This document shows positions 20,619 through 61,687 of a stretch of 64,000 bases of DNA, in pieces. The stretch is from the NCBI GenBank assembly GCA_021202845.1, contig JAJQCF010000028.1, positions 3,796-67,795 on the forward strand, in the 5' to 3' direction. A model generated the notes under the pieces. The model was not told the DNA's origin and made no database searches. It was given only the letters and a program-made list of their open reading frames with translations. Source of the stretch: Oscillospiraceae bacterium (GTDB lineage Bacteria; Bacillota; Clostridia; Oscillospirales; Oscillospiraceae). Numbering within the stretch: position 1 is the first letter of the stretch; each line of letters begins with the position of its first letter. Both the position numbers and the translations under genes were made by a program.

Positions 20619-20657
20619 GCTCTGTGATTACCTCCTCTTTGCCAGCACAAACTAAAA

Positions 20658-20671
20658 TTAGTTTTTGCTAA
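20658..20671. promoter_or_regulatory. TTAG-N6-CTAA palindrome in the feoA-feoB intergenic region
   Basis: TTAGTTTTTGCTAA read directly. It has the same half-sites and spacing as the sites at 21264, 47170 and 47444. Confidence 0.3.
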
Positions 20672-20734
20672 CGCTTAATTAAAATTAAAGGCGGATTTAT
20701 TCCGCGGCCGCCGCGCGGTTAAAAATGCTCTGTG

Positions 20735-21260: not shown

Positions 21261-21280
21261 GGGTTAGCAATTTCTAACCC
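21261..21280. promoter_or_regulatory. Perfect palindrome GGGTTAG-CAATTT-CTAACCC just downstream of the feo promoter -10 (candidate metalloregulator operator)
   Basis: 7-bp perfect inverted arms with a 6-nt spacer, 12 nt downstream of the TATACT -10 box of the feoA-feoA-feoB promoter. Confidence 0.45.
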
Positions 21281-21291
21281 TCGCAAATGTA

Positions 21292-28753: not shown

Positions 28754-28758
28754 CCTGT

Positions 28759-29801: not shown

Positions 29802-29811
29802 GGGAGACATT

Positions 29812-42244: not shown

Positions 42245-42880
42245 TCAGTCTTTGTATGCAAACTCGCTCACGGCGGCGTAGTCTGTTACGGTTATGCGGC
42301 CGTATTTCAGCTCCAGCCAGCCGCGCGAGGCGAGGGCGGAGAGCGCTTGGTTGACAGTGGCGCGGCTCAGGCCGAGGGCTTTGCCTATAAACTCCTGCGT
42401 ACACTCCAGCTCGTAGCCGAAAGCGGTCTTTTCGCACTGGCCATAGCGTATGCGGCGGCAGAGGAAGCGCGAGAGCTTTATCTGCGGGTCGAGCAGGGCG
42501 CTGTCGGCCAGCTGCTCGCACAGCACTATCACGTCGAACGCCATGTCGTCCATGACGGCGCTGCGGAACTCGGCGTTTTCCGCCATCAGCTTTTCCGCAA
42601 GAGGTCGGGGAAATGTGTAAATTACGCTCTTGCGCATAACCATTTCGTTCGCGCGGTGCTTCTCGCGGCGGAGGAACACTCCCGCAGCCAGCGTTTTCTG
42701 CGGCCACGTCGTCATAATTATTCTCTCGCGCCCGTCGCTGGCGAGTGAAAAAGCCTGCGTCAGCCCGGATTTGAGGTAGAAAAACTCATCCGCGCTCTCG
42801 CCCTGCCGGAAAAGTATTTCCCCCGGCATATATGTCTTGGGCGTGACGAGCGCCAATATGTCTTCGGATAGCTGTGCCAA
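42245..42880 (-). CDS. Crp/Fnr family transcriptional regulator
   Basis: cNMP-binding-like N-domain (GEILFRQGESADEFFYLKSG) and C-terminal HTH (TQEFIGKALGLSRATVNQALSAL). Confidence 0.8.
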   Translation of the reverse strand: MAQLSEDILALVTPKTYMPGEILFRQGESADEFFYLKSGLTQAFSLASDGRERIIMTTWPQKTLAAGVFLRREKHRANEMVMRKSVIYTFPRPLAEKLMAENAEFRSAVMDDMAFDVIVLCEQLADSALLDPQIKLSRFLCRRIRYGQCEKTAFGYELECTQEFIGKALGLSRATVNQALSALASRGWLELKYGRITVTDYAAVSEFAYKD

Positions 42881-42919
42881 TGCCGCCGCCTCCCCGCATG
42901 AATGTGCAGGGCTATCATA

Positions 42920-43831: not shown

Positions 43832-43982
43832 GAGCAGCCCTCCTTGACATATTAACTCTTTTTATGAGTTAATTATACCTTGTCGGGAGGAAAAATTCTG
43901 TAAAGCGCTTGACAATCACAGCTTGTTACGGTTACTGCCGAGGTTTGTGACAAAGGACGGGGAGGCGTGGTTCTTTCAGCGT

Positions 43983-44011
43983 TTGCGCTTACGCCGCAAG
44001 TCTGCTATAAT
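43983..44011 (+). promoter_or_regulatory. Candidate promoter of the FHA-SEDS/PBP operon
   Basis: TTGCGC - 17 nt - TATAAT. Confidence 0.45.
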
Positions 44012-44039
44012 ATCCCCGTACGCGAAAGGAGGGCTTGGC

Positions 44040-47056: not shown

Positions 47057-47165
47057 GGAGGAAACCATATGGAAGACAAGCAAATTGCGCTCAAGCCGTC
47101 CGCCGACCCGTTTTATTCCACGGACATATCGACAAGCGGAGTGGGGGAAATTGGAGGGGTGGGGG

Positions 47166-47183
47166 TTAGTTAGAATTGACTAA
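47166..47183. promoter_or_regulatory. TTAGTTAG-AATTGA-CTAA palindromic box (candidate DtxR-like operator)
   Basis: Contains TTAG-N6-CTAA (47170..47183), preceded by a second TTAG. Outer arms are TTAGT/ACTAA. Confidence 0.4.
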
Positions 47184-47301
47184 TAGGGTTTGCAGAAAAT
47201 TGCATTGTGCGACAATGTTGCAGTGATTAAATTATGCAGGGGGTTATTTTGGACATAACGCCGAAAATTTGGTGGGGAGTTAGCGTGGACAAATCTTTTG
47301 C

Positions 47302-47331
47302 TTGACATGATTTGACGCGAGGGTGTATGAT
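47302..47331 (+). promoter_or_regulatory. Candidate promoter TTGACA-18-TATGAT
   Basis: Read directly. Lies in the 600-bp intergenic region ahead of the NEAT-like genes. Confidence 0.4.
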
Positions 47332-47407
47332 TGAGGCGTGACGTAAGGGAGACCTGACGTGCGGTGCGGAAGCAGAGAAATGTTTGTGAAAAATGAATGA
47401 AAATCGT

Positions 47408-47431
47408 ATCCGGCGCGTGACCGGATTTTTC
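47408..47431 (+). terminator. Intrinsic terminator-like hairpin
   Basis: ATCCGG-CGCGTGA-CCGGAT followed by TTTTTC. Confidence 0.5.
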
Positions 47432-47439
47432 AAAGATGC

Positions 47440-47457
47440 TTAGTTAGAATATACTAA
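47440..47457. promoter_or_regulatory. TTAGTTAG-AATATA-CTAA palindromic box (second copy)
   Basis: Near-identical to the box at 47166 and overlaps a possible -10 (TATACT). Lies about 205 nt upstream of the NEAT-like gene start. Confidence 0.4.
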
Positions 47458-47662
47458 CCGCCCTGAAAACGGAGAGGGGTTATGAGAGAAACGGAGCGTC
47501 GGCGGATACGGTGGGCGGCAATGCGGGGCCGGGTTCGCATAAACTAACCTCCCGTGCCGGTCAGCATTTGGTATGCGTTCACGAATAGAACCGAACGGAA
47601 AATCTCCCTCTGTAAAAACCACATTTTGCCGCCGGACAAATCCGGCAGAAAGGAGTCAGAAA

Positions 47663-48118
47663 ATGACTGCAAGACGAAACCTCAAACGGGCAGGAGCCCT
47701 TGTGCTCGCCCTCGCCATGTGCTTCGCACTTGGCGCAACCGCGCTGGCCGACACCGACGTTGGCACTTACAGCGTGACTATCTATCAAGACGGCACGACC
47801 ACAAAATCTATGGCAGATGGCTGCATGGGTGACGCAACCGTTACCCTGTCCGGCACAACCTACACTGTATCCATTCCTCTCACCACCATAACAATGACTT
47901 ACGGTGATTCCACTTACGTCGGAAAAATTACTGATATTGAAATTGAGCAAGCGACAAAATGCAGTGCAGAAGACGATACACTTGTTTTCACTGTATCCAG
48001 CGATGATTTTGCGGAACTCACATTCGATGCCACCATGTCTGTCACTGTTACTGCCATTTCCGGCAGCGGCGGGTATACACATGATAATGTTGCCGCCGAT
48101 ATTGTTTTGAGCAAGTAA
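47663..48118 (+). CDS. Small secreted protein with a single NEAT-like domain (hemophore-like)
   Basis: ATG at 47663 follows AGGAG. It has a signal peptide (MTARRNLKRAGALVLALAMCFALGATALA/DTD) and then about 120 aa: GTYSVTIYQDGTTTKSMADGCMGDATVTLSGTTYTVSIPL...SVTVTAISGSGGYTHDNVAADIVLSK. This follows the NEAT pattern (G.Y.V.f......SMa....a.l.v..g.y.v.l ... Y.h....l). There is no anchor motif. Confidence 0.7.
   Translation: MTARRNLKRAGALVLALAMCFALGATALADTDVGTYSVTIYQDGTTTKSMADGCMGDATVTLSGTTYTVSIPLTTITMTYGDSTYVGKITDIEIEQATKCSAEDDTLVFTVSSDDFAELTFDATMSVTVTAISGSGGYTHDNVAADIVLSK
47750..48115 (+). repeat. Copy 1 of a roughly 366-bp duplicated NEAT-like coding module
   Basis: Long runs of perfect nucleotide identity with 50939..51304, for example a stretch of about 100 nt through CTATCTATCAAGACGGCACGACC...ACTGTATCCATTCC. 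The central third has diverged. Confidence 0.9.
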
Positions 48119-48217
48119 TAACCCCCAACACTGTAGAGGTGCTGTCTCAAAATGGTCTTATAAATCACAAGAGACAGCATCTTCACATTTTCAAATTACA
48201 AACATAAAGGAGTAAAT

Positions 48218-51200
48218 ATGGATATTAAGATATTCAATTTTAGACGCATAACATCCATTTTATTGGTTGCCGTCATGCTTCTTCTTTTCTTGCCGGCGGG
48301 CGTTTTTGCTTCTGATGATGAAGCAAGCGCTGCCGGAGAAAGCGAAACTGCTGCTGTAGAAAGCGCGGAGGCAGAAGCATCAACTGATGCAGACGACGAG
48401 ACTACAGAAACTGCCGAAGCTGCGACAACAGAGACTGCTGAAAACGAAATGAGCACTGATGAAAGCGGCACTGAGGAAAGTTTGACTATCGAAAATTCTC
48501 AAACCGAGGAAACAGAGACATCTGGAGAAAGTGAGGATGCCTCTGCTGCAGAAAATGAAGAAACCTTGATTTCAGTGGCTTCTGCAGAAGCCGAAGAAGA
48601 TACAGGCGCTTATATTGCGGAGGTTTCATATTCTCTCAATGACAGCACCGAAACAGTTAATGTTGCAGACACAGACAGTTTGGTTAATACGCTGGCTGAC
48701 ATTGACACAAGTGCAGCAGATGTTAAGGTAACGTTTTTGAATGACGTTGAATCCGAATGGGCTTCATACGAAATTCCCTGCTCTCTTGAGATAGACCTGA
48801 ACGGAAAAAACGTGTATTTAACCGGGTTATCCAGCGGCACGGCATTTACCATTTCGGCGGATTCTAATTATACCCTGACTGTTTCCGACAGTTCTGAATC
48901 GAATACCGGCGTACTCAAAACAGACGGTGCGGTGTTTAATACGAATGCAGGCACCAAATTGATTATCAATGGCGGAACTTTCATATCAGAAGGTTCTCGT
49001 GTGGTTGTATCTGAAGGCGAGTTGGTTATAAATGGGGGCAATTTTGAGAGTGCAACTGCTAAATCAACAATTCAGTTTCAAGGAACAAGCGCATACATAT
49101 CAAACTGTGATGTTAGAAACCTCTACTCAAGTTCAACCAAAGGGTTTGGAGCTGCTCTTGAGTTATTGAGTTCCGAATATTGTGAAAGTTTTTATTTAAA
49201 AGATTCACAACTAAGTTCCGGCGGCGGAGGTTGTATATACTTCCAGTCACCTCAAGACGAGGTTATATACAATATTGATTCATGCAATGTGGTCGGCGTC
49301 TACGATGCGATTTACGTTAAAAATAATGCAACAGGCGGGACCATTAACCTGCTCGGAGACACAACGCTATACAGCGAAAGCGGCGCGGCGGTGGAATTGA
49401 GAAAATCAGGAACCGGCCTCACGCTCAATTTTTCTGATACTGTTAAGGTGAGTTACAGTGACGCATCAATTCCCGTATTGCCGAGCAGCGCCGTTGCTGC
49501 CTTTCCGGCAGACGAGGACGGAAACCAAATGGTATTTAGTACAGAAGCCGACACCGACGGTTACTACAGCTTTGTAACAACCGCAGGCGTTGTACAATAT
49601 ATGAACGGCTACGAGTATCAAGGTTATCAGTATTTTGGAGACTTTGATGAAACCCTCGCAAGCTCAGAGGAAATTTACAATGCGGGGAATGACGACTCAT
49701 CTTGGGGTTCAGCGCTGTGGAAGGCGTTTAAAACGGCCTATGAAAACGCCTTGGCAGTGAAAGACAACACCAACGCCAACCAGAACGAGATAGACTACTT
49801 CGCAGACGCACTTGCCGCCGCATTGCTTGATTTGAAAGAAAGCAAGGCATCAACAATTAACTTTGACAGTCTGCTCAACGGCGACTACAACGTGAATGTC
49901 TCCATGTGGAACATCGGCTTTACAAATTACTCCATGGCAAATGGCGCGATGAACGAAGACGCGGTTCTGCACATCGGCGACGACGGCGCGTCCGTTACTC
50001 TCACCTTCCACCCGACAACGGCGCTCTTCACCGTCGGCGCGATGACAAACCTTTGGGTATACGAGGGCGAGAGCTTTGAAGCCGGTTACGCCAACCGCGT
50101 TGCGGGAGAAGGGCGCGTTGAGGGCACCTACGGCGACTGGTACACCTATGCCATTGACGACGAGGAAAACCTGACCTACACCACCGAGGCAGCCGAGGAG
50201 GACGCCGACGGCGCGCGCCCCGGCAGCGTCACCATTCCGCTCTATTACCTCGGCACTGACAGTGAGAGCAGAAAAATTTGCGTGCGCATCTCCGTTGACG
50301 TAATGACAGAAATGGGCGTTGGCGACCAAGACGCGATACTCTATCTGGATTACAGCAGCATATCCGCCGTGACGGACACGCTCAGCACCTCGCTCCGCGT
50401 GACGAACAGCGACGGCGAGAGTGCCGAGGACGCAATCACTATTGCCGCAGACAACGAGGGCGACGTGACCCGCACCGTCACGCTGCTGCAGGCGGCGGGC
50501 AGCGGCTATGTCCTTAGCCTCGAAAACAGCAATACGGACGCTGTCTCCGCCGTGCTTGGCGAAGCTGCGACCGAGAGCACAGAGATAGAACAGCTTGACA
50601 TGACCGTGGAGTCCTCGTCCCAGACCCTGACTATCGCAGCGGCGGAGGGACTGGAGGGCACGCAGACCGCAACACTGACGCTGACCGCGACAAACGGCAA
50701 CGACACGCTGACAAAGACCATAGAAGTGACCGTTTCCAGCGAAAAAGCTGTGAAGGTTGAAAGCGTCACCGTCGAAGACGCGACCGCAACCGCGACCCTC
50801 AGCGGCGGCGTTGTGGCGGAAAATGACACCGTGAGCGTCAGCGGCTCCGTCGTCACCGCCGACGCGACTACAGGCAATGCAGACGTCACCGCGGTGAACG
50901 TAATAATTCCGCAGAGCGTGGCCGCCGCGGTGCTGGGCGACACCGCTGTTGACACTTACAGCGTGGCTATCTATCAAGACGGCACGACCACAAAATCTAT
51001 GGCAGATGGCTGCATGGGTGACGCAACCGTTACCCTGTCCGGCACAACCTACACTGTATCCATTCCGCTTACCAGCATCACAATGGATTACGGCGACTCC
51101 ACCTACAGCGGAACGATTTCTGATATTAAGATTAAGCAGGCAAGTGATTGCGATGTGATAAACAATACACTTGTTTTCACTGTATCCAGCGATGATTTTG

Positions 51201-53233
51201 CGGAGCTCACATTCGATGCCACCATGTCTGTCACTGTTACCGCCATTTCCGGCAGCGGCGGGTACACACATAACGATGTTGCCGCCGATATTGTTTTGAG
51301 CAAGGCATCATCAATGCTGGGCGGCTACAGCTCTCTGGTGCTGGCGACCGACGTCGGCAGCGTAACGCTGGACAGCGATATTCTTGCGGGCATAACCGAG
51401 ACCGCAACGCTGACGATTGCCGTCAACAGCACTTACAGCAACTATACCGACGACGACGGCCACGTGTTTGTCTGCGGCTATGACCTGACCCTGAGCACGG
51501 ACTTCAACGGCGGCACGGCGACAGTGAGCGTCCCCTGCGAGAGCACAGATGTTGTTTACGCCTACTGCATAGACGACGACGGCTCCCTTGCCGAGCGCGC
51601 GGCGCTGACCGTAGTCAGCGGCTATGCGAGCTGGAGCACCACCCACTTCTCCACTTGGGCGCTGAGCGAAAAAGAGTACACAATCAGCTCCGGCAGCTCG
51701 TCCGGCGGCTCTTCCGGCGGCTCCTCCAGCAGCACAAGCAGCAGCTTCCTGAACACCGACGGCAACTACCTTGTGACAATCACACTGTACAAGGAGAGCG
51801 CAAACGAGGTTTCCATGGGCGACGTGGCCTTTGAGTACAACCGCAGCGCGCTTGTGACGGTTTCCGGCGGCGAGATAACCTATGTAGAAATTGCCACCAA
51901 CCCCGTCAAGGTTGACCTGTATGTGAGCGCCATGACCGCGCTGGCTCTCACGAACGGCGGAGACGTAGAGGTTCTGGAGCGCGGCGACTTCTCCACAAGC
52001 TACAACGGCACGACCACGAACACATACGAGGACGACAACGGCTACATCAAGCGCGCCAGCTTTGACATGCCCGACGAGGGACAGCCCTCCACGGCGGACT
52101 CCGTGACGTATATCGACGTTACCTTTACCGTTCCCGACACGCCGATGGACGACCTCTATGAAGAGCTTGCCGCGCGTATTCAGTTCGACTGGAGTACCGC
52201 GACAAAGACGAGCAAGAGCCACCTGACCGCTAACACCTCCACCGCGACAGGAAGCAGCAGCAGCGGCGGCGGAACGGCGACCACGGTTGAGGACATTTCG
52301 CTGACCGACAGCGCCACCGGCATCAAACTGGAGACCAACACCAACCGCCTTGACAGCGAGGCGGAGCTGAGAGTTACCGTAGTCACCGAGGGCGACGATT
52401 ACGACAACGCCGCCTCCCTGATGGGTACAGACGACGAGTGGACGCTGTACGAAATTGTCGCGTTGGTTGACGGCACGGTTACAGCTCCCAGCGGCAGCGT
52501 GACGCTGTATATCCCCTGCACCGACGAGGAAGGACTGACCGTCTACCGCATAAACGACAGCGGACGCACCGTCATCAAGGGCTCCGTCAGCGGCAGCTAC
52601 TACACCTTCACCACCAGCTCCCTCGGCCTGTTTGCGATAATCGGCAGCGTGGCCGACGCGGACGAAATTGTTCAGGTCTCCGAGAGCGGCTTCACGGACA
52701 TCGTGGGCCACTGGGCGGAGGAGTACATCGAAACGGTTGTGCAGCGCGGTCTGTTCAACGGCACGGGCGAGACGACATTCGACCCCGACAGCGGCCTGAC
52801 GCGCGGAATGTTCGTGACGGTTCTCGGACGGCTGTACGGCATTGACGCCGAGGCGGAGTTCACCAACGCCTTTGGCGATGTGGACGCCGAGGCATACTAC
52901 GCGCCGTACATAGCTTGGGCGAGCGAAAACGGCATTGTCAACGGCACGGGTGACGACACGTTCGAGCCCGACCGCGAGATAACCAGACAGGAAATGGCGA
53001 CCATAATGAGCCGCTACTTCGAGTTCGCGGAAATCACTCCGCTGGACGGCGAGGCGGTCAGCTACGCCGACGACGCCGACATTGCGGACTGGGCGCGCGA
53101 GGGCGTTGAAAACATGACGAAGGCCGGTTTGTTCTCCGGCACGGACAAGAACGAATTCAACCCGCTCGGCACAGCAACCAGAGCCGAGGCCGCGACGGTG
53201 TTCGCAAGGCTCATAGGCAGCTATGGTCTGTAA
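48218..53233 (+). CDS. Large SLH-anchored surface protein: signal/TM, acidic linker, beta-helix-like region, three NEAT-like domains, two Ig-like modules, three SLH domains
   Basis: 1671-aa ORF. A repetitive NGG/beta-helix-like segment lies at about 48785..49630. NEAT-like segments lie at about 49860..50360 (GDYNVNVSMWNIGFTNYSMANGAMNEDAVLHI), 50939..51304 and 51752..52195 (GNYLVTITLYKESANEVSMGDVAFEYNRSALVTV). Three SLH repeats at 52688..53230 begin FTDIVGHWAEEYI, FGDVDAEAYYAPYI and YADDADIADWAREGV. Confidence 0.85.
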   Translation: MDIKIFNFRRITSILLVAVMLLLFLPAGVFASDDEASAAGESETAAVESAEAEASTDADDETTETAEAATTETAENEMSTDESGTEESLTIENSQTEETETSGESEDASAAENEETLISVASAEAEEDTGAYIAEVSYSLNDSTETVNVADTDSLVNTLADIDTSAADVKVTFLNDVESEWASYEIPCSLEIDLNGKNVYLTGLSSGTAFTISADSNYTLTVSDSSESNTGVLKTDGAVFNTNAGTKLIINGGTFISEGSRVVVSEGELVINGGNFESATAKSTIQFQGTSAYISNCDVRNLYSSSTKGFGAALELLSSEYCESFYLKDSQLSSGGGGCIYFQSPQDEVIYNIDSCNVVGVYDAIYVKNNATGGTINLLGDTTLYSESGAAVELRKSGTGLTLNFSDTVKVSYSDASIPVLPSSAVAAFPADEDGNQMVFSTEADTDGYYSFVTTAGVVQYMNGYEYQGYQYFGDFDETLASSEEIYNAGNDDSSWGSALWKAFKTAYENALAVKDNTNANQNEIDYFADALAAALLDLKESKASTINFDSLLNGDYNVNVSMWNIGFTNYSMANGAMNEDAVLHIGDDGASVTLTFHPTTALFTVGAMTNLWVYEGESFEAGYANRVAGEGRVEGTYGDWYTYAIDDEENLTYTTEAAEEDADGARPGSVTIPLYYLGTDSESRKICVRISVDVMTEMGVGDQDAILYLDYSSISAVTDTLSTSLRVTNSDGESAEDAITIAADNEGDVTRTVTLLQAAGSGYVLSLENSNTDAVSAVLGEAATESTEIEQLDMTVESSSQTLTIAAAEGLEGTQTATLTLTATNGNDTLTKTIEVTVSSEKAVKVESVTVEDATATATLSGGVVAENDTVSVSGSVVTADATTGNADVTAVNVIIPQSVAAAVLGDTAVDTYSVAIYQDGTTTKSMADGCMGDATVTLSGTTYTVSIPLTSITMDYGDSTYSGTISDIKIKQASDCDVINNTLVFTVSSDDFAELTFDATMSVTVTAISGSGGYTHNDVAADIVLSKASSMLGGYSSLVLATDVGSVTLDSDILAGITETATLTIAVNSTYSNYTDDDGHVFVCGYDLTLSTDFNGGTATVSVPCESTDVVYAYCIDDDGSLAERAALTVVSGYASWSTTHFSTWALSEKEYTISSGSSSGGSSGGSSSSTSSSFLNTDGNYLVTITLYKESANEVSMGDVAFEYNRSALVTVSGGEITYVEIATNPVKVDLYVSAMTALALTNGGDVEVLERGDFSTSYNGTTTNTYEDDNGYIKRASFDMPDEGQPSTADSVTYIDVTFTVPDTPMDDLYEELAARIQFDWSTATKTSKSHLTANTSTATGSSSSGGGTATTVEDISLTDSATGIKLETNTNRLDSEAELRVTVVTEGDDYDNAASLMGTDDEWTLYEIVALVDGTVTAPSGSVTLYIPCTDEEGLTVYRINDSGRTVIKGSVSGSYYTFTTSSLGLFAIIGSVADADEIVQVSESGFTDIVGHWAEEYIETVVQRGLFNGTGETTFDPDSGLTRGMFVTVLGRLYGIDAEAEFTNAFGDVDAEAYYAPYIAWASENGIVNGTGDDTFEPDREITRQEMATIMSRYFEFAEITPLDGEAVSYADDADIADWAREGVENMTKAGLFSGTDKNEFNPLGTATRAEAATVFARLIGSYGL
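50939..51304 (+). repeat. Copy 2 of the duplicated NEAT-like coding module (inside the large surface protein gene)
   Basis: See copy 1. The encoded peptides differ mainly in the middle (ITMTYGDSTYVGKITDIEIEQATKCSAEDD versus ITMDYGDSTYSGTISDIKIKQASDCDVINN). Confidence 0.9.
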
Positions 53234-53331
53234 ACATTCGCACCTAAAGCAAAAACAGTAATCCCAAACACCTTGCCGGACGGCGGAGGGGCAAACCTCT
53301 CCGCCGCCTCGGCAGGGCGTAAACCGTTTTC

Positions 53332-53359
53332 AAAGCCGCAGAGACAGCTTTGCGGCTTT
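53332..53359 (+). terminator. Candidate terminator after the large surface protein gene
   Basis: Stem AAAGCCGCA / TGCGGCTTT. A second GC-rich hairpin lies at 53282..53305. Confidence 0.45.
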
Positions 53360-53386
53360 GAAAACAGCTTATGCGGAGGCAGGATA

Positions 53387-54205
53387 ATGAAGGAATTAAC
53401 CGTAAGACAGATGGAGTATCTCCTGCTGTTTGCAACCCACAAATATTCCGAGGCGGGCATGACGAGCGCCGCGGACGAGTTCGGAGTGACAAAGGCGACG
53501 GCCTGCGTCACCGTTGACGCGCTCGAAAGGGCGGGCATGATTACCCGCGGCGAGCTTGGCGAAATCGCGCCCACCGAGGTGGGCGGCGAGATTATAGCGC
53601 CGAGGGTGAAGGCGTTCCATATAGTCAGCGGCTGGATGATGGAGCACATGGGTCTGCTGCCGATAAGAGCGGAGCAGGCCGCAAGGACAATAGTCTGCTC
53701 GCTGGACGACGATATAATCGAAAAATTCCTTAAATATAACAATCAGCCCGCCGCGCCGAAGTCGGAGAGCGAGGATGCCCTTCTCGAAAATCTGCCATAC
53801 GGCGTTTATACGGTGGACTTTGAGGTGAGAAAAAAAGGCAGGACGGAGCTGTCTATGGCAAACGCCGGCTTTCTCAAGCCGGCAATGGCTCTGCGGGAAA
53901 ACGAACGCAGCCTTTTCACGCTCTGCCCTATAAGCATAACGCGGAACATTCGCCTTATGCCCAAACGCTCGGCCATTCTGGAAACGATGTGGTATTACCA
54001 CGGCGACTCGTGGCGCGAGGCGCAGAGCTCTCCCACGGGAGTGACGATTCCCGGGTACGCGATGCGCTTCGACCCCGTTCGCAAGACAGCAACAGTGCGC
54101 GTGCGCATGAGGACGTCCATTTCCCTGCGCTATATGCCGGAGAGCGAGGCGGACATCGTGTTTTTCCTCACCTCATGTGCGGAAGATGAGAAAGTATACT
54201 TATAA
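53387..54205 (+). CDS. DtxR-like winged-helix regulator fused to a C-terminal NEAT-like domain
   Basis: ATG at 53387 follows GGAGG. Residues 1-115 align by eye with the DtxR/MntR N-terminal and dimerisation regions (RQMEYLLLF...AADEFGVTKATACVTVDALERAGMITR...KAFHIVSGWMMEHMGL). Residues from about 135 onward (nt 53789 onward) read GVYTVDFEVRKKGRTELSMANAGFLKPAMALRENERSLFTL...TVRVRMRTSISLRYMPESEADIVFFL, which is NEAT-like. No signal peptide. Confidence 0.75.
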   Translation: MKELTVRQMEYLLLFATHKYSEAGMTSAADEFGVTKATACVTVDALERAGMITRGELGEIAPTEVGGEIIAPRVKAFHIVSGWMMEHMGLLPIRAEQAARTIVCSLDDDIIEKFLKYNNQPAAPKSESEDALLENLPYGVYTVDFEVRKKGRTELSMANAGFLKPAMALRENERSLFTLCPISITRNIRLMPKRSAILETMWYYHGDSWREAQSSPTGVTIPGYAMRFDPVRKTATVRVRMRTSISLRYMPESEADIVFFLTSCAEDEKVYL

Positions 54206-54235
54206 TTACATATACAAATCAGCGAGGTAAAAGAC

Positions 54236-55195
54236 ATGAGAGCAAAAACATTTGTATCCGCGCTGCTGTGCGCCGCGCTGCTGGCGGGCACTGCGGCGGT
54301 AAACGCAATGGCGCTGCAAACGGGAGCCTACACCGGCAGCGTGACAACCAGCTACTATAACCCCGACACGGGAAATGTTGACGACGGCGGTACGTCCAAC
54401 GCCGCGCTGGGCGAGGGAATGTGCCGCTCCGCCACCGCAAAAACGGGGCTTGTGGAAATAGACGGCGACGGAAACGTGTGGGTCACCATTCGCCTGCAGC
54501 TCCAAAGCAGCTGCAGCAACGTGGCGTTCTACACGCGCACGGGCTACGACAGCTATTCCAAGGTCAGCTACACCATTACCGCCGAGGACAGCGGCAATGA
54601 CTCCATAGACTACCGCTTTGCGATTCCCAGCGCCGGCACCTACATAAAGGCCACGATGTATGTGACGCCTATGGGGCGCGACGTGCTGTGGTATCTCTGG
54701 GTAGACACCTCAACGCTTACTTCCGGCAGCGGAGATTTTGTTGTGAGCATAGACCTTTCCGAATCCGCGGCTCCAACCGAAACAGAGGCTCCCGCGGAGA
54801 CTGCCGCGCCCGCCGAAACAGAGACACCGGACGAAACGCCGACGCCCGCCGAGACGCAGATGGCGGCTGAAACCGAGTCTCCGGCGGAAACGGCGCAGCC
54901 CGCCGCGGCCGAGCAGACCGCCGAGCCTGCCGCAGCCGAGTCTCCGCAGGAGACGACGGAGGCCGTAAGCACGGACGAGGACGACGCGGCGGACGTTAGC
55001 TCCGACGTGAGCGCCGCCGCGCCCGTCGAAGCCGACGAAGCCGACGAGGCCGCGAGCTCTGCGGACAGTGCCGACGAAGCGGAAAACGCGGACGAGGAAA
55101 GCCCCGCCGTATCCGGCGCTGTAATCGCTGTCATCGTGGTCATAGCCGCCGCGGCAGCAGTCGGCGCGGTATGCTGTGTGAAAAGGAAGCGGTGA
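54236..55195 (+). CDS. Shp-like heme-binding cell-surface protein with acidic linker and C-terminal TM anchor
   Basis: Signal peptide present. YNPDTGNVDDGGTSNAALGEGMCRS... and ...ATMYVTPMGRDVLWYLWVD match my recollection of Streptococcus pyogenes Shp (YRHPISGQIEDSGG...GQGMVEG and MFVEPMGREVVFYL), including both Met ligand positions. A PAET-rich linker follows, then AVIAVIVVIAAAAAVGAVCCVKRKR. Confidence 0.8.
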   Translation: MRAKTFVSALLCAALLAGTAAVNAMALQTGAYTGSVTTSYYNPDTGNVDDGGTSNAALGEGMCRSATAKTGLVEIDGDGNVWVTIRLQLQSSCSNVAFYTRTGYDSYSKVSYTITAEDSGNDSIDYRFAIPSAGTYIKATMYVTPMGRDVLWYLWVDTSTLTSGSGDFVVSIDLSESAAPTETEAPAETAAPAETETPDETPTPAETQMAAETESPAETAQPAAAEQTAEPAAAESPQETTEAVSTDEDDAADVSSDVSAAAPVEADEADEAASSADSADEAENADEESPAVSGAVIAVIVVIAAAAAVGAVCCVKRKR

Positions 55196-55198
55196 GCT

Positions 55199-56167
55199 AT
55201 GAGAAGGATTATTCTTGTCTGCATTGCCCTGTCCTTGGCTCTGGCGCTCTGCGCCTGCGTTGACCAGCACCCCGAAGAAGATACAGCGGCGGAAAGCACC
55301 GCTGCGGCGGAAAACGCGGCCGCGAATGAAGATGTGGAGGAGCCTGCGCGCATTATAGCGACGTCTTACTCAACCATACTTATATGTGACAAGCTGGGGC
55401 TTGACCTTGTGGCCGTTTGCTCAACCTCCGGCGAGCTGCCGGAGCGCTATCAGGATTTGCCCACCGTCGGCACGGCCATGTCTCCCGATGCGGAAGCCAT
55501 AGCTCTCTTGGAGCCGACGGATGTTATCGGCCCCGACACGCTGGCCGAGACAATAGAGCCTACATATCAGGCAGCGGGGGTGCCCTACACCTTCATAGAT
55601 TTGCAGAGCGTTCAGGGAATGTACGACAGCATTGCCATGCTGGGAGAAAAATACGGCGTGTCGGAGGCCGCCGATACGCTCATTGCCGAATATGAGGAAA
55701 TTTTAGCGGACTTCCAAACAAGCATTGAGGGCGAGGAGCAGCCGACGGTGCTGCTGCTCATGGGTCTGCCCGGAGCTTACATAGAGTGTACGCCCAACTC
55801 CTATGCCGGTTCGCTGCTGGAGCTTGCGGGAGCGGTGAACGTGGTACAGGTTGACGACGAGATGAACTTTGTCTCATGGAACACCGAGGAGCTTTTGGCG
55901 CTTGACCCCGATTACATACTGCTGACGGCTCACGGCCTGCCGGAGCTGGCTATGGAAATGTTCGCCGAGGAGTTTACTACCAACGACATTTGGAAGCATT
56001 TCAGAGCTGTCGAGGACGGGCACGTATATCAGCTTGACTATACGCTCTTCGGCATGAGCTGCACGTTTGACTGGCCGGAGGCGCTTGCAGTTTTGCAGGA
56101 AATACTGTACAGCGAAACATATGAGGCTTACGACGCGGAGGCTGCCTACCTTGAAAACAATTCATAA
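55199..56167 (+). CDS. Heme/siderophore-type ABC substrate-binding lipoprotein (Peripla_BP_2, HtsA/SiaA-like)
   Basis: Lipobox LALCAC. Class III binding-protein pattern (IIATSYST...LDLVAV...LEPTDVIGPD...). Sits directly after the Shp-like gene, as in shp-htsABC. Confidence 0.8.
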   Translation: MRRIILVCIALSLALALCACVDQHPEEDTAAESTAAAENAAANEDVEEPARIIATSYSTILICDKLGLDLVAVCSTSGELPERYQDLPTVGTAMSPDAEAIALLEPTDVIGPDTLAETIEPTYQAAGVPYTFIDLQSVQGMYDSIAMLGEKYGVSEAADTLIAEYEEILADFQTSIEGEEQPTVLLLMGLPGAYIECTPNSYAGSLLELAGAVNVVQVDDEMNFVSWNTEELLALDPDYILLTAHGLPELAMEMFAEEFTTNDIWKHFRAVEDGHVYQLDYTLFGMSCTFDWPEALAVLQEILYSETYEAYDAEAAYLENNS

Positions 56168-57146
56168 GGACATTTTCAAAGGTGTGGTCGGCTGCGCTGT
56201 GCTTGCCGCAATGATTTTTGCACTGACGCTGATTGCCATGAAACTCGGCAGCATCAGCATTACATACGGCGATTTGTTCAATGGCCTGTTCGTAGCCTAT
56301 GATAAACGCGTTGCGGTTATATATGACCTGCGGTTCCCGCGCATTATAGTAGCGCTGCTGGGCGGCGCGGCGCTGAGCTGCTCGGGACTGCTTTTTCAGG
56401 CTGTTCTGCGCAATCCGCTGGCCGACCCCGGCATTATCGGAATATCCGGCGGAGCCTCTCTGGCGGCGTCCGCTGTGACGGCGCTCTTCCCCGCGCTGTA
56501 TTTATCCGTACCGCTCATTGCCTTTTTTGGCGGTCTGGCAGCGTTCGCGGTAATATATTCTTTGTCATGGAAGGGCACGCTTGACCCCGTGAGGATTATC
56601 CTTGTAGGAATTGCCGTTGCCGCAGTGTTCACCGGACTTGGCGAGGTGCTGAACGGCATTGCCGACAGCACAGGAGTGTCGGTCAGCGTCAGCGGGCTTT
56701 CCCAACTCGTGTGGTCCGACGTGCGCATGATGGCGCTGTATTCCGCTGTCGGAATAGTGCTGGCCGCCGCACTGTCTCCCGCCTGTAATCTGCTGGCACT
56801 GGACGACAAAACTGTTCGCGGCCTCGGCGTTCGCGTTGACCGTCTGCGGCTTACCATTTCCGCCGTTGCCGTTCTGCTGGTAAGCGGCGTGACCGCGGTT
56901 ATCGGCGTAGTGGGTTTCCTTGCGCTTATTGTGCCCCATATGGCGCGGCGAATTGTTGGCTCCGACCATAGAGTGCTTGTGCCGTTTTGTGTCCTGCTGG
57001 GCGGCTTCGTCCTGCTTCTTGCCGACACAGCGGGGAGGCTGATTGCTTCCCCCAACGAGATTTCCGCAAGCATTATTATGAGCATAGTAGGCGGCCCATT
57101 CTTTATCTTTCTGCTCAAGCGAGGCGACAGACATGGTAAGCATTGA
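56151..57146 (+). CDS. FecCD-family ABC permease
   Basis: Polytopic ORF with RNPLADPGIIGISGGASL and other motifs typical of FecCD/BtuC. I prefer the TTG at 56151, after GGAGG; the track ORF begins at 56067. Confidence 0.85.
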   Translation: MKTIHKDIFKGVVGCAVLAAMIFALTLIAMKLGSISITYGDLFNGLFVAYDKRVAVIYDLRFPRIIVALLGGAALSCSGLLFQAVLRNPLADPGIIGISGGASLAASAVTALFPALYLSVPLIAFFGGLAAFAVIYSLSWKGTLDPVRIILVGIAVAAVFTGLGEVLNGIADSTGVSVSVSGLSQLVWSDVRMMALYSAVGIVLAAALSPACNLLALDDKTVRGLGVRVDRLRLTISAVAVLLVSGVTAVIGVVGFLALIVPHMARRIVGSDHRVLVPFCVLLGGFVLLLADTAGRLIASPNEISASIIMSIVGGPFFIFLLKRGDRHGKH

Positions 57147-57897
57147 ACATCTCACATTCTCCTATGACGGCCGGCCCGTATTGAATGACCTCTCCATTAA
57201 GATTAAAGACGGCGTAATAACCACCCTTTTGGGGGCAAACGGCTGCGGCAAAACCACGCTCCTGCAGCTGATGACAAAAAACCTCAAGCCGACTTGCGGA
57301 GCGATAAAGCTGGACGGCAGAGAGCTTAAAGACATATCGGTTAAAGAGTTTGCCCGCCGAGCGGCGATTGTTCATCAAAAAAATATAGCTCCCGACGACC
57401 TCAGCGTGGAGCGCCTTGTCAGCTATGGACGTCTGCCGTACAGCTCAATTTTCAGGCCGGGGCTGAACGAGGAAAATCAGGAGCAGGTGGAGCGGGCATT
57501 AAAGCTGACGAATATGGATACGCTGCGCGAGCGGCACGTTGGAACACTCTCCGGAGGACAGCGGCAGCGAGCGTTTATTGCAATGGCTCTGGCGCAAAAT
57601 ACGCGGCTGCTCTTTTTGGATGAACCGACCACGTTTCTCGATGTGCGTTATCAGGTGGAAATACTGCGCTTGGTAAAAACGCTGAACAAAGAGCAGGGCA
57701 TCACGATAGTCATGGTGCTCCACGACATCAATCAAGCGCTGACCTACTCGGATGAGGTGATAGGACTGCACGGCGGGAAGGCCGTTTTGCAGGGTGCTCC
57801 CGAGGATGTAATCAGCACGGAGAGCATACGCACGCTTTACGGCGTAGAGCTCCCGGTTTTTCACAGCGGCGGAAGGCTCTGCGTTATGGCGGTATAG
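57133..57897 (+). CDS. Heme/siderophore ABC transporter ATP-binding protein
   Basis: Walker A GANGCGKTT, signature LSGGQRQR, Walker B LLFLDEPT, H-loop VLHD. Confidence 0.9.
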   Translation: MVSIEHLTFSYDGRPVLNDLSIKIKDGVITTLLGANGCGKTTLLQLMTKNLKPTCGAIKLDGRELKDISVKEFARRAAIVHQKNIAPDDLSVERLVSYGRLPYSSIFRPGLNEENQEQVERALKLTNMDTLRERHVGTLSGGQRQRAFIAMALAQNTRLLFLDEPTTFLDVRYQVEILRLVKTLNKEQGITIVMVLHDINQALTYSDEVIGLHGGKAVLQGAPEDVISTESIRTLYGVELPVFHSGGRLCVMAV

Positions 57898-57900: not shown

Positions 57901-58311
57901 ATGAAAGGTGCGGCTTTAACAATGAAAATATTTTTTATAATGCTCGGGCTTGTATGTCTCGGACTGGGCTGCATAGGCGTTGCGCTGCCGATACTGCCCA
58001 CCACGCCCTTCCTGCTTGCGGCGGCGTTCTGCTTTGCCAAAAGCTCCGAGCGCCTTAGCAACTGGTTCATGGGAACAAGGCTATATAAAAATAATCTTGA
58101 ACCCTTTGTGCGCGGAAATGGCATGACGTGGAGGGCGAAGCTGCGTATTATGGCAACTGTGACCGTTATTATGGTAATTGCTTTTATTGCTATGCGCGGC
58201 ACGACGGTCGGCAGGATATGTCTTGCCGTGGTGTGGGCGGCACATATCATAGCGTTTTGTTTTATTATCAAAACCTGTCCCCGTGAGGGAGAAAGCGGGG
58301 AAGAAAAATGA
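57901..58311 (+). CDS. ybaN: YbaN / DUF454 family inner-membrane protein
   Basis: GCIGVALPILPTTPFLLAAAFCFAKSS.RL..W is the DUF454 signature. The start is either 57901 or the ATG at 57922. Confidence 0.7.
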   Translation: MKGAALTMKIFFIMLGLVCLGLGCIGVALPILPTTPFLLAAAFCFAKSSERLSNWFMGTRLYKNNLEPFVRGNGMTWRAKLRIMATVTVIMVIAFIAMRGTTVGRICLAVVWAAHIIAFCFIIKTCPREGESGEEK

Positions 58312-60056
58312 TGATAAGCAAGCGTTTTTCGGCCATGCTGCCGGATATAAAACGCTTTATTTACGGCAAGGTATTTGTGAACTGGGTCTCGCTGCTGTCC
58401 GGCATATTGCTGTGGTTTGCCGTGGCGGATTTGCTGGAGCAGGCGCTGAACGGTCAGCTCTCAGCGGGCGGCACTGCGAGAGGCGTATGCATCGTCCTTG
58501 TGTGCGCGGCGGTCCGCTTTGTGCTGACGAAAGCCTCTGCGGAGCTGACGCACAGGGCTACTTCCCGCGTTAAGCTAAAGCTGAGGGAGCTGCTGTACGG
58601 AAAGCTCTGCCGTCTCGGCACAGACTATACGGACGCTTTTCCAACAGCGGAGGTCGTGCAGCTCGCGGGAGAGGGCGTGGAACAGCTGGAGAGCTATTAC
58701 GGCAATTTTCTTCCGCAGCTTTACTATGCGGTTCTGGCCCCAGTGACGCTTTTTGCGGTGTTCCTGCCTCTCTCACCGCTGACGGCTATAGTGCTTTTTG
58801 TCTGCGTGCCCCTGATTCCGGCTGCCATAATGTCCGTTGCGAAGGCCGCAAAGCGAATGATGGGAAAGTATTGGGATGCTTATGCCAATTTGGGCGACAG
58901 CTTTCTGGAAAACCTGCAAGGGCTGACAACTCTTAAAATCTATGGCGCTGACGAACGGCGCCACAGGCAAATGAATGAGGAAGCTGAACATTTCAGAAAA
59001 GTTACCATGAAGGTTCTCACCATGCAGCTCAATTCCGTAACAATCATGGATTTCGTAGCCTACGGCGGTACGGCGCTCGGCAGCATTTTATCCGTGTATG
59101 CGTTTATGAACGGACGGGTTTCATTCGGCGGCGCTGCTGCCATGATACTGCTTGCAAGCGAATTTTTCCTCGCCATGCGCGCGCTCGGCAGCTATTTTCA
59201 CGTTGCCATGAACGGAGCGGCGGCGAGCGAGAGAATGCTGCGGCTGCTCGACCTGCCGGAGCGCACAGACGGTGAGGCAGACATAAAGGACGGGGAAATA
59301 TCATTTGAAAATCTCAGCTTTTCTTATGGCAACGACAAAAAAGCCTTGGATTGTGTGAGCTTCATCGTTCCGCAGGGGAGTTTCGCTGCGGTCTGCGGCG
59401 AAAGCGGCTGCGGCAAGAGCACGCTGGCCTCAATTCTCGGCGGTTTGCGTTGCGGCTACAGCGGCAGCGCCTCAGTCGGCGGAACAGAGCTAAGCGCCGC
59501 GAAGTCGCAATGCCTGAGAAAACTGGTAACCGTCGTTTCAACAAACAGCTATATTTTCTCCGGCTCCATAAGGGATACTCTTTTGGAGGGAAAGCCGGAT
59601 GCCAATGACGAAGAGCTGTTGAATGCGCTGAAGCAGGTCAATCTTTTTGATTTTGTGCAGTCTCAGGGCGGGCTGGACATGAGCGTATCGGAGCGCGGCG
59701 CAAGTCTCTCCGGCGGGCAGAGGCAGCGTTTGGCGCTTGCGCGGGCGCTCTTGAGGGACAGTCCGATATATGTTTTCGACGAGGCGACAAGCAATATCGA
59801 CGCCGAAAGTGAGGCGGATATTATGAACGTAATACATTCTCTGCGCGGCAGGCATACGATTGTGCTCATATCCCACCGCCTTGCGAATGTAGTGGAAGCC
59901 GATTTTATAGCATATCTCAGCCGCGGCAAAATAGCGGAAATGGGAACACACTCGGAGCTTATAGGGCAAGGCGGAGAATATGCCGCAATGTATGCCGCAC
60001 AGCGGGAACTTGAACAAATAAGGGAGGGTGAAAAACAGTGCGCAGAAGCGGTTTGA
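58308..60056 (+). CDS. cydD: ABC exporter, fused permease/ATPase, CydD-like
   Basis: 582 aa with six TM helices plus an NBD (GESGCGKST, LSGGQRQR, VFDEATS). The N-terminal region resembles CydD-type thiol exporters, but the subfamily call is tentative. Confidence 0.6.
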   Translation: MMISKRFSAMLPDIKRFIYGKVFVNWVSLLSGILLWFAVADLLEQALNGQLSAGGTARGVCIVLVCAAVRFVLTKASAELTHRATSRVKLKLRELLYGKLCRLGTDYTDAFPTAEVVQLAGEGVEQLESYYGNFLPQLYYAVLAPVTLFAVFLPLSPLTAIVLFVCVPLIPAAIMSVAKAAKRMMGKYWDAYANLGDSFLENLQGLTTLKIYGADERRHRQMNEEAEHFRKVTMKVLTMQLNSVTIMDFVAYGGTALGSILSVYAFMNGRVSFGGAAAMILLASEFFLAMRALGSYFHVAMNGAAASERMLRLLDLPERTDGEADIKDGEISFENLSFSYGNDKKALDCVSFIVPQGSFAAVCGESGCGKSTLASILGGLRCGYSGSASVGGTELSAAKSQCLRKLVTVVSTNSYIFSGSIRDTLLEGKPDANDEELLNALKQVNLFDFVQSQGGLDMSVSERGASLSGGQRQRLALARALLRDSPIYVFDEATSNIDAESEADIMNVIHSLRGRHTIVLISHRLANVVEADFIAYLSRGKIAEMGTHSELIGQGGEYAAMYAAQRELEQIREGEKQCAEAV

Positions 60057-61687
60057 AAATTATGCTCGGTCTGCTTGGCCTTGTTAAGCCTTTGGCGCAT
60101 ATTATGCTGGCCGCTGTAGCAATGGGAACGGTGGGATATTTGTGCGCGATATCCATTACCGTTCTTGCCGTAAATATGCTGCTGACCTCCATGCATATAT
60201 CGCCGTGGCCGCTGTCTCTCAGCGCAGCAGCGGCGCTGATGCTGCTCTGCGCCCTGATGCGCGCCGCTCTGCGCTACGGAGAGCAGACCTGCGGCCACTA
60301 CATAGCGTTCAGACTGCTTGCCGTCATTCGTGACAGAGTTTTTGGCGCACTGCGCCGTCTGGCTCCCGCAAAGTTAGAGGGCAGAGGGCGCGGCGACCTT
60401 ATCTCGCTTATAACGGGAGACATAGAACTGCTGGAAGTTTTCTATGCCCACACGATAGCACCCGTCTGCATCGCGTTTTTGGTGTCTTTAACCGAGGCGA
60501 TTTTGATTAGCACGCTGTCACTGCCGCTCGGCTTGCTGGCAATTATATCGTACATCCTCGTCGGCTGTGTTATTCCCTTGGCCTCGGCACGCGCGGAGAA
60601 ATCCCGCGGAATGTCTGCCAGAAACAAACTCGGCGGGCTAAACTCTTTTTTTCTTGAATCCCTGCGCGGTATCCGCGAAACGCTGCAATATGGGCAGAAT
60701 GAAAAGCGCGCGCGGCGTGTTCAAAAGAAAACAGATGAGCTTAACAAAATTCAGGGCGAAATAAAGCGACACGAGGGAACAACCTCTGCACGTTCCGGAG
60801 CGGCGGTAACGCTCCTGACCCTTGCAATGTTTTTGGCCGGTTTGGCGCTGAGTGTAGATTTTTCGACGCTCGTTTTGACAACAGTGACGCTTTCAGCCTC
60901 ATTCGGACCCGTCCTTGCGCTTTCCAACCTCTCGGCTGCGCTCGGTCAAACGCTGGCCGCGGGAGAAAGAGTGCTGTCGCTGCTGGAGGAAATTCCCGAA
61001 ACCGAGGACATCACAAACGGTGAAACGCCGGAATATACGGGCGCGGAAGTCAAAAATCTCACATTTGCCTATGGCAGCGAGGAAATACTGCATGACCTTT
61101 CCGCGCAATTCCCGGCAGGTCAAATTGTGGCCGTAACAGGAAAAAGCGGCTCCGGCAAGAGTACGCTTTTGAAATTGCTTATGCGTTTTTGGAGCGCCGG
61201 AGACGGACAGGTGAACATCTCAGAAAGAGACATAGGTAAAATAAATACTGCCTGCCTGCGGGCAATGGAAGGCTATATGACACAGGAAAGCGACCTTTTC
61301 CATGACAGCATTGCCGACAACATCGGCATCGGCAAACCGGATGCCACAAGAGCGGAAATAGAAAACGCCGCCAAGAAGGCCTCGCTGCATGATTTCGTTA
61401 TTTCGCTGCCCAAAGGCTATGATACGCCCGTAGGGGAACTGGGCGAAACGCTCTCAGGAGGCGAACGCCAGCGCATAGGGCTCGCGCGCGCATTTCTGCA
61501 CGATGCGCCGCTGATGCTTTTGGACGAGCCGACCAGCAACCTTGACAGTCTGAACGAAGGCGTAATACTCAAGGCATTGCGTGAAAACCGTCAGGCAGGA
61601 CATACAGTGGTGCTGGTATCTCACCGCAAATCCACCCTTGCAATCGCCGACGCCTCTTACGCCGTGGAAAACGGTCGCTTCTGCTGA
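60038..61687 (+). CDS. cydC: ABC exporter, fused permease/ATPase, CydC-like
   Basis: 549 aa with NBD motifs GKSGSGKST, LSGGERQR, LLDEPTS. GTG start follows GGGAGGG and overlaps the upstream gene by 19 nt, as expected for a heterodimer partner. Confidence 0.6.
   Translation: MRRSGLKIMLGLLGLVKPLAHIMLAAVAMGTVGYLCAISITVLAVNMLLTSMHISPWPLSLSAAAALMLLCALMRAALRYGEQTCGHYIAFRLLAVIRDRVFGALRRLAPAKLEGRGRGDLISLITGDIELLEVFYAHTIAPVCIAFLVSLTEAILISTLSLPLGLLAIISYILVGCVIPLASARAEKSRGMSARNKLGGLNSFFLESLRGIRETLQYGQNEKRARRVQKKTDELNKIQGEIKRHEGTTSARSGAAVTLLTLAMFLAGLALSVDFSTLVLTTVTLSASFGPVLALSNLSAALGQTLAAGERVLSLLEEIPETEDITNGETPEYTGAEVKNLTFAYGSEEILHDLSAQFPAGQIVAVTGKSGSGKSTLLKLLMRFWSAGDGQVNISERDIGKINTACLRAMEGYMTQESDLFHDSIADNIGIGKPDATRAEIENAAKKASLHDFVISLPKGYDTPVGELGETLSGGERQRIGLARAFLHDAPLMLLDEPTSNLDSLNEGVILKALRENRQAGHTVVLVSHRKSTLAIADASYAVENGRFC

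Follow-up and report, generated by a model that had tools for sequence, protein, structure and literature searches.

A DtxR-fold regulator carrying a NEAT domain in a clostridial heme-uptake locus is a predicted heme sensor

In DtxR, IdeR and MntR, the ligand-bound form of the repressor is the form that binds DNA. In Streptococcus pyogenes, the shr-shp-sia heme locus is under repression by MtsR, a member of the DtxR family (PMC6698748). Structures reported in 2025 show that the first NEAT domain of Shr ligates heme through Met-390 and Met-475, with Ser-389 bonded to a propionate, that the second NEAT domain uses Met-997 and Met-1107, and that Shp likewise employs two methionines (PMC12796733). 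A 2024 review of heme-sensing regulators covers Fur, MarR, TetR, LysR and two-component types only, and two surveys of NEAT domains contain no discussion of regulators or of cytoplasmic NEAT domains. Here we analyze a 64,000-nucleotide stretch of DNA from an Oscillospiraceae bacterium (assembly GCA_021202845.1, contig JAJQCF010000028.1, positions 3,796 to 67,795), hereafter the window, and in it a gene encoding a 272-residue protein, hereafter the regulator, which combines a DtxR-type DNA-binding half with a NEAT domain. Judged from its sequence, the regulator most likely senses heme directly.

Residues 1–118 of the regulator correspond to the winged-helix and dimerization fold of DtxR and MntR. 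A profile built from nine relatives matches SSO2273 (E = 5.5e-7) and Escherichia coli MntR (3.3e-6) in the Protein Data Bank (PDB) over residues 1–119, and the same profile finds IdeR, DtxR, ScaR and SloR at 1e-4 to 1e-3. In the full-length AlphaFold model (predicted local distance difference test (pLDDT) 83.7), the N-terminal half consists of three helices, a β-wing, a long helix (residues 64–88) and two further helices; helices 64–88, 92–105 and 108–118 align to IdeR residues 66–121, and a Foldseek search with this half returned DtxR, IdeR, SloR and DR2539. The recognition helix (residues 36–48) carries a conserved, DtxR-like family motif, V-S/T-K-P/S/A-T-V/A-S-R. Single-sequence searches are nearly blind for the regulator and profiles are needed: phmmer against the PDB gave generic helix-turn-helix matches only (E ∼1), Pfam returned weak, sub-threshold matches to generic MarR helix-turn-helix families, and NCBIfam a weak match to MntR (E = 8e-4, residues 20–120). 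Among 23 close relatives, PF01325 is matched in just 2 and PF02742 in just 3 (E <0.01). A first-pass annotation of the sequence had read this half as DtxR/MntR by eye, which the profile and Foldseek matches bear out. It had also proposed a search with PF01325, PF02742 and PF05031, in which the window protein itself stays below the cut-offs or unmatched; because of this, the DtxR and NEAT assignments rest on profiles and fold.

The metal site of DtxR and IdeR is lost in the regulator and in its family. In an ungapped HMMER alignment, IdeR His-79 and Glu-83 correspond to Phe-77 and Ser-81 of the regulator, and IdeR His-98, Cys-102, Glu-105 and His-106 correspond to Glu-96, Arg-100, Val-103 and Cys-104. 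The by-eye pairing of VHDEACRWEHV in DtxR with AEQAARTIVCS in the regulator, from which the metal site had been called degenerate, coincides exactly with this alignment to IdeR. The same positions are variable, non-liganding and mostly hydrophobic or basic among 135 relatives, sampled from 50%-identity clusters, and the AC..EH motif is found in none of them (0/135).

The C-terminal half has a NEAT fold. Modeled alone, the domain (pLDDT 88.7, predicted template modeling score (pTM) 0.83) forms the eight-stranded β-sandwich of NEAT domains, and all 50 of the 50 best PDB matches to the model are NEAT domains (TM-score 0.5–0.68 on target length), Hbp2-N2, IsdX2-N5, IsdX1, IsdC, IsdA, IsdB and IsdH among them. 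Neither an unrelated fold nor a divergent SH3-like domain appeared in the structure prediction, and the earlier suggestion that a NEAT-like module has taken the place of the SH3-like third domain thus holds for the domain model and for all top Foldseek matches. An hhalign comparison with 33 canonical YxxxY NEAT domains, cut from long multi-NEAT surface proteins found in our exhaustive search, covers the whole domain (97% probability, E = 5e-11); these surface proteins match the family profile at positions ∼130–185. The domain profile finds NEAT sequences in the PDB with E-values down to 7e-8, and Shr at 1e-3. PF05031 is matched in 14 of the 23 close relatives (best E = 5.5e-10). The Shp family PF11545 has no match in the regulator and scores 157.7 bits on the gene downstream. 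A likeness to the extracellular NEAT-like domains of the locus had been claimed for the domain as a whole; it stands for the first half, where a GxYxV...SM(A/G)D pattern is common to the 1671-residue SLH protein, the 181-residue protein and the regulator. The regulator has no signal peptide, membrane segment, sortase anchor or SLH anchor, and its N terminus is the helix-turn-helix; the maximum Kyte-Doolittle mean over 19 residues is 0.78, in line with the first-pass description of a signal-less protein.

Across the entire protein, conservation peaks at three residues of this domain: Ser-156 in 134, Met-157 in 127 and Met-250 in 127 of the 135 relatives, followed by Pro-251 in 123. Profile alignments place Ser-156 on the canonical NEAT lip serine and Met-157 on the residue after it, and the AlphaFold model has a lip helix at residues 157–161. 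The canonical tyrosine ligand is aligned by hhalign to residue 249, one before Met-250, which in the model lies three residues ahead of the strand formed by residues 253–266. The YxxxY motif is absent from the regulator family; the window protein reads R-Y-M-P-E-S-E-A in this region, and position 249 is mostly His, Lys or Asn in the family. The equivalence of Ser-156/Met-157 with Ser-389/Met-390 of Shr rests on the shared canonical serine and on match coordinates, with an uncertainty of one residue; the 1671-residue SLH protein matched SLH domains only when searched against the PDB and therefore gave no residue-level alignment to the first NEAT domain of Shr. Because of the Ser-Met...Met conservation, the precedent of Shr and Shp, and the Shp methionines and SM motifs in neighboring proteins of the locus, we predict that the C-terminal domain is a bis-methionine heme binder of the Shr/Shp type, in which Ser-156 would contact a propionate and Met-157 and Met-250 would be the axial ligands; this refinement goes beyond the first-pass annotation.

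The regulator belongs to a large family. With an E-value limit of 1e-10, an exhaustive profile search returned 262 representatives; of the 150 that were listed, more than 100 have 255–300 residues and match over their full length. Clustered at 50% identity, the family forms more than 100 groups spread over gut and environmental Clostridia, and its hosts include the abundant commensals Anaerostipes hadrus, Blautia, Roseburia, Flavonifractor and Flintibacter. The only recorded protein with the identical sequence is annotated as hypothetical and comes from an Oscillospiraceae metagenome-assembled genome (MAG). In two relatives, P0010 (445 residues) and P0012 (414 residues), the DNA-binding half is followed by two NEAT domains in tandem, and the second copy in P0012 has lost the SM motif. 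In Anaerostipes sp. MSJ-23 (locus L021 of the 30 related loci we compared), the regulator is split into a DNA-binding open reading frame (7572–7982) and a NEAT open reading frame (8094–8423), which may reflect a frameshift or a pseudogene.

In the Lachnospiraceae loci L019–L030, the regulator is immediately preceded by a paralogue (11 paralogues, e.g. L029 6726–7571 and L019 6771–7532). The paralogue scores above the Pfam cut-off for PF02742, one subtype also for PF01325, and retains ACR(M/I)EH, which contains the equivalents of IdeR Cys-102, Glu-105 and His-106. The C-terminal domain of the paralogue can be aligned with the NEAT-like domain of the regulator over its full extent, with LA replacing SM and the second methionine absent. 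The metal motif is thus present in 11/11 paralogues versus 0/135 family members, and SM in 0/11 versus 125/135. Such reciprocal loss and retention of the metal site and of the methionines is expected from a change of ligand, and regulator and paralogue are a possible iron-sensor/heme-sensor tandem in Lachnospiraceae. The recognition helices of the paralogues differ from those of the regulator family and from one another. One Oscillospiraceae MAG (L002) has a DtxR-type gene with an intact metal motif directly downstream of the regulator (8983–9888), whose C-terminal region is not NEAT but helical-looking. No other DtxR-like open reading frame occurs in the 64-kb window; a weak third profile match, at 42248–42919, is a Crp/Fnr regulator and no relative of DtxR.

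A palindrome, GTTAG-N6-CTAAC, is the candidate operator. The TTAG-N6-CTAA core occurs at four sites in the window (20658, 21264, 47170 and 47444) versus 0.31 expected; all four boxes listed in the first-pass annotation exist, three of them 3–4 nucleotides away from where it had put them. Three window sites precede the gene that opens the heme locus, and a further one-mismatch palindrome, at 21289, stands beside the perfect copy at the promoter of a feoA-feoA-feoB operon (18138–21304, minus strand, confirmed by Pfam). In the 30 related loci the core is found 30 times, versus 1–7 times in simulations, and the perfect 16-bp palindrome 24 times in 423 kb, versus 0–1 in ten Markov simulations. All but two of the 30 core sites (28/30) are intergenic, just 5′ of the regulator, of a CydD-like gene, of the paralogue-regulator pair or of small secreted NEAT genes, and perfect palindromes flank the regulator in L001, L004, L011, L013, L016 and L017, with no second DtxR gene in reach. 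The centers of the half-sites are separated by ∼11 bp, a spacing suited to one winged-helix dimer. From the gene association, the conserved recognition helix and the loci without a second DtxR gene, we predict that the regulator is the protein that binds GTTAG-N6-CTAAC, and the palindromes at both the heme locus and the feo operon suggest one regulon for heme and ferrous-iron uptake. A longer motif, TTAGT-N8-ACTAA, derived from two boxes near 47.2–47.4 kb, was found in no related locus and was discarded, and a site at 7184 in L002 was set aside as a chance occurrence, being inside a coding region and missing the flanking G/C.

The locus itself is one of heme uptake (Table 1). Pfam and NCBIfam matches agree with the first-pass placement of the regulator directly upstream of the Shp-like gene and the importer genes, and the synteny is conserved in our set of 30 genomes. 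In most of the 30 loci, from Oscillospiraceae, Lachnospiraceae and others, the regulator adjoins the Shp/IsdE/FecCD/ATPase genes or a CydDC-like pair. The gene order of the window recurs in Oscillospiraceae isolates and MAGs, in Chakrabartyella and in others, and in several genomes the regulator stands beside the CydDC-like pair instead. DUF454 and the CydD/CydC-like pair accompany importer and regulator in the window, in L001–L017, in L025 and in L027; they may act in the export of heme or thiols, or in import. In Sporobacter termitidis DSM 10068 (L017), two copies of the regulator (4166–5005 and 9108–9929) flank a CydDC-like pair; four perfect palindromes surround the copies, and the vicinity has no importer. 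Small secreted proteins are encoded just after the regulator in L029 (8750–9250) and L016 (9111–9596), a palindrome preceding each gene; they share SM...MP motifs with the NEAT domain of the regulator and have no Pfam NEAT match. Upstream of the locus, the window contains an open reading frame with FHA and FtsW/RodA/SpoVE domains (43923–45743), followed by a penicillin-binding transpeptidase gene (45239–47056). The G+C content falls to 0.49 at 28001–30000 and to 0.45 at 48001–50000, compared with ∼0.60 in the rest of the window; the second of these segments encodes the N-terminal portion of the SLH/NEAT protein, which is acidic and repetitive.

The family alignment starts at the methionine encoded at 53387, and all relatives start at the equivalent methionine. 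A longer reading from a TTG at 53273 is unlikely and was rejected, as it would cross two hairpins and relatives begin at the ATG. These hairpins are strong and in tandem (minimum free energy −77 kcal/mol, z = −8.5) and occupy the spacer between the SLH/NEAT gene and the regulator (53268–53365); neither is followed by a T run, and they may attenuate or stabilize the transcript. No σ70 promoter is predicted directly 5′ of the regulator gene. An Rfam search of 46900–54300 gave no meaningful match, so that a riboswitch or leader is unsupported there.

Table 1. Window coordinates of the regulator gene and its parts, the surrounding heme locus and the candidate operators
Feature	Coordinates	Strand	Remarks
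Regulator gene (272 amino acids + stop)	53387..54205	+	DtxR-fold DNA-binding/dimerization half fused to NEAT domain
Ribosome-binding site GGAGG	53375..53379	+	7 nucleotides 5′ of ATG at 53387, read from sequence
Winged helix-turn-helix, residues 1–63	53387..53575	+	Model secondary structure, profile vs PDB, family conservation
Three helices, residues 64–118, equivalent of DtxR dimerization/metal-binding domain, without metal ligands	53576..53740	+	
Low-confidence linker, residues 119–134	53741..53788	+	pLDDT <50 at residues 123–126
NEAT-fold β-sandwich, residues 135–268	53789..54190	+	Profile, Foldseek, hhalign, domain model
Codons Ser156-Met157	53852..53857	+	Canonical NEAT lip Ser and proposed first axial Met
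Codons Met250-Pro-Glu-Ser-Glu-Ala	54134..54151	+	Met250 = proposed second axial Met, just before last strand
181-residue secreted NEAT-like protein, SM lip motif, first gene of locus	47573..48118	+	
1671-residue surface protein, NEAT-like domains and three SLH domains	48218..53233	+	
Shp-like heme-binding surface protein, both Shp axial Met kept	54236..55195	+	PF11545, 2e-46
IsdE-type substrate-binding protein, FecCD permease, ATP-binding cassette (ABC) ATPase (heme importer)	55199..57897	+	IsdE TIGR03659, above cut-off
DUF454 (YbaN-like) membrane protein and CydD/CydC-like ABC pair	57922..61687	+	Pair just below NCBIfam cut-offs
Perfect GTTAG-N6-CTAAC, candidate operator	47443..47458		Overlaps −10 hexamer of promoter-like site 5′ of first heme-locus gene
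One-mismatch palindrome GTTAGAATTGACTAAT, candidate operator	47169..47184		
One-mismatch palindrome GTTCGCATAAACTAAC, weaker candidate	47533..47548		25 nucleotides before ATG at 47573
Perfect palindrome GGGTTAGCAATTTCTAACCC, candidate operator	21263..21278		Just downstream of TTGACA-17-TATACT promoter, feoA-feoA-feoB, minus strand
One-mismatch palindrome between feoA and feoB	20657..20672		

Taken together, these findings make it probable that the regulator senses heme and represses heme and iron uptake, with heme as co-repressor and the palindrome as operator, in line with the first-pass suggestion of control by heme rather than by metal. It would be a cytoplasmic one-component repressor whose dimeric, DtxR-type winged-helix core no longer binds metal and whose NEAT third domain binds heme through a propionate contact of Ser-156 and axial Met-157 and Met-250. 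The dimer would recognize the 16-bp palindrome in the promoter region of the heme-acquisition locus and at the feoA-feoA-feoB promoter, and the regulated locus would comprise the NEAT receptors, the regulator itself, Shp, the IsdE/FecCD/ATPase importer, DUF454 and the CydDC-like pair. Once loaded with heme, the protein would bind its operators and switch off the uptake of heme and ferrous iron, heme replacing the Fe(II)/Mn(II) ligand by which canonical DtxR proteins are activated. We infer the direction of the response, with heme as a co-repressor, because the liganded form of DtxR binds DNA, because of the feo sites, and because MtsR represses the equivalent locus.

Several observations weigh against this repressor model. 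At the level of the protein, the regulator of the window has no match to PF01325 or PF02742 at E up to 1 and scores 19.3 bits with PF05031, for which the cut-off is 32.8, and the case for heme binding is made from conserved residues and homology; the hhalign register around Met-250 is of low confidence, and this residue is offset by one from the tyrosine ligand. At the level of the locus, two strong hairpins stand between the regulator and its upstream gene, no palindrome lies directly 5′ of the regulator gene in the window, and the palindrome could be owned by another regulator, since metal-type DtxR genes adjoin the regulator in L002 and L019–L030. As for the direction of the response, induction by heme could be compatible with a regulon that includes a CydDC-like exporter, and the characterized Gram-positive heme-sensing one-component repressors are, according to the 2024 review, all released from DNA by heme. 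This last precedent carries the opposite logic, in which the apo-protein represses and heme releases it, inducing uptake and the CydDC-like pair in the manner of HrtR, PefR, HatR and FhtR. The pair is a constant neighbor with palindromes directly 5′, export of heme would make its induction logical, and substrate-induced uptake would suit organisms unable to make heme. Though a serious contender, release by heme seems to us rather unlikely, given that the DNA binder of the DtxR family is the ligand-bound form and that the palindrome is also found at the feoAAB promoter, where induction of ferrous-iron uptake amid plentiful heme makes little sense. The equivalent locus of S. pyogenes is, moreover, repressed as a whole under replete conditions (PMC6698748).

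Another reading accepts heme binding and gives the palindrome to a canonical DtxR/IdeR-type protein or to the metal-type paralogue, leaving the regulator with other targets or with a role as heme buffer or chaperone whose DNA-binding domain is vestigial. The GTTAG half-site resembles the iron boxes of DtxR and IdeR (consensus TTAGGTTAGGCTAACCTAA), feo is a typical iron-sensor target, and both the adjoining metal-type genes and the missing palindrome 5′ of the regulator in the window fit this arrangement. We consider it unlikely, as perfect palindromes flank the regulator in six loci with no second DtxR gene in reach, the window encodes no other DtxR-like protein, and the recognition helix is conserved and DtxR-like in the family but diverse in the paralogues. 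Alternatively, the NEAT-like domain may have ceased to bind heme and become a structural or oligomerization substitute for the FeoA/SH3-like domain in a protein that is constitutive or responds to another signal. The absent YxxxY motif, the Pfam NEAT score below cut-off and the homologous domain without candidate heme ligands in the paralogue would agree with this, but a structural role hardly explains why conservation in the family peaks at Ser-Met and Met, in or within one residue of NEAT ligand positions. With the metal site gone in all members, no other obvious sensor is left, and both methionines are lost in the very paralogue that keeps the metal site, which ties them to sensing; a purely structural domain therefore seems quite improbable. 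It is more improbable by far that heme is a permanent cofactor of a gas or redox sensor of the RcoM type, in which carbon monoxide (CO), nitric oxide (NO) or a change in iron oxidation displaces a methionine. Known CO sensors do use a hexacoordinate site with a displaceable methionine. Methionine is also uncharged as a ligand and can bind heme in both the Fe(II) and the Fe(III) state (PMC12796733). The genomic context, however, is consistently one of heme and iron acquisition, without gas metabolism or stress genes, and no part of our data hints at a gas.

If the repressor model is correct, the regulator represents a new solution to heme sensing, in which a ready-made heme-binding domain is placed on a DtxR core and controls uptake; earlier work on heme-responsive transcription in Gram-positive bacteria, where TetR, MarR, Fur and LysR scaffolds and two-component systems are known, is nearly all on efflux in pathogens. 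The working definition of NEAT domains, by which they are surface-displayed modules, would be overturned as well. The wider proposition is that the NEAT domain, so far familiar solely from extracellular heme relay, now serves as a cytoplasmic sensor on a DtxR scaffold that has exchanged its metal site for it, that iron and heme are read by two paralogous repressors in Lachnospiraceae, and that the family is a master switch of heme and ferrous-iron uptake acting through GTTAG-N6-CTAAC; for this combination we judge the evidence evenly balanced. The uptake and rationing of dietary and host heme in the commensals that harbor the family are largely unstudied, and the predicted operator and regulon are testable. 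The reciprocal paralogue pair offers a natural experiment in ligand switching by a regulator, and a compact heme-gated repressor with a 16-bp operator could serve as a heme biosensor.

One-component heme-responsive regulators are known; our literature searches found no published description of the DtxR-NEAT architecture or of a cytoplasmic use of NEAT domains, in agreement with the first-pass remark that no characterized example was known. The regulator shares with DtxR, IdeR, MntR and MtsR (PF01325 plus PF02742) the winged helix-turn-helix and the three-helix dimerization domain in the same order, and with the DtxR family an S-x-P-T-V-S recognition-helix motif and a candidate operator palindrome with a DtxR-like half-site; it sits in the same type of locus as the shr-shp-sia genes repressed by MtsR in S. 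pyogenes. Unlike members of the DtxR family, it has no metal ligands, carries a NEAT domain in place of the FeoA/SH3-like domain, stays below the Pfam cut-offs and has heme as its proposed ligand.

Its NEAT domain resembles those of Shr and Shp (PDB 9w5z and 2q7a) in the β-sandwich, the Ser-Met at the lip helix and a candidate second ligand methionine before the last strand, the two methionines being 93 residues apart compared with 85, 110 and 87 in Shr NEAT1, Shr NEAT2 and Shp, respectively. Whereas Shr and Shp are extracellular heme-relay surface modules, the NEAT domain of the regulator is cytoplasmic, fused to a DNA-binding domain, unmatched by PF11545 and ∼20 residues longer than typical NEAT domains. 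With IsdA, IsdC, IsdH-N3, IsdX1, IsdX2-N5 and Hbp2-N2, its best structural and sequence matches, it has in common the GxYxhxF first strands, the lip serine and KPA after the lip; in contrast to these canonical tyrosine-ligated domains, it lacks YxxxY, and the protein is devoid of a signal peptide and of anchors of the sortase or SLH type. As a proposed cytoplasmic transcription factor that reads heme to govern heme traffic, the regulator is comparable to HrtR, HatR and FhtR (TetR), PefR and HsmR (MarR) and Irr (Fur), but it differs from these sensors in its DtxR-type fold, in an unrelated heme site and in using a dedicated, pre-existing heme-binding domain. Those of these sensors that come from Gram-positive bacteria control efflux and are released by heme, whereas the regulator described here sits in an uptake locus.

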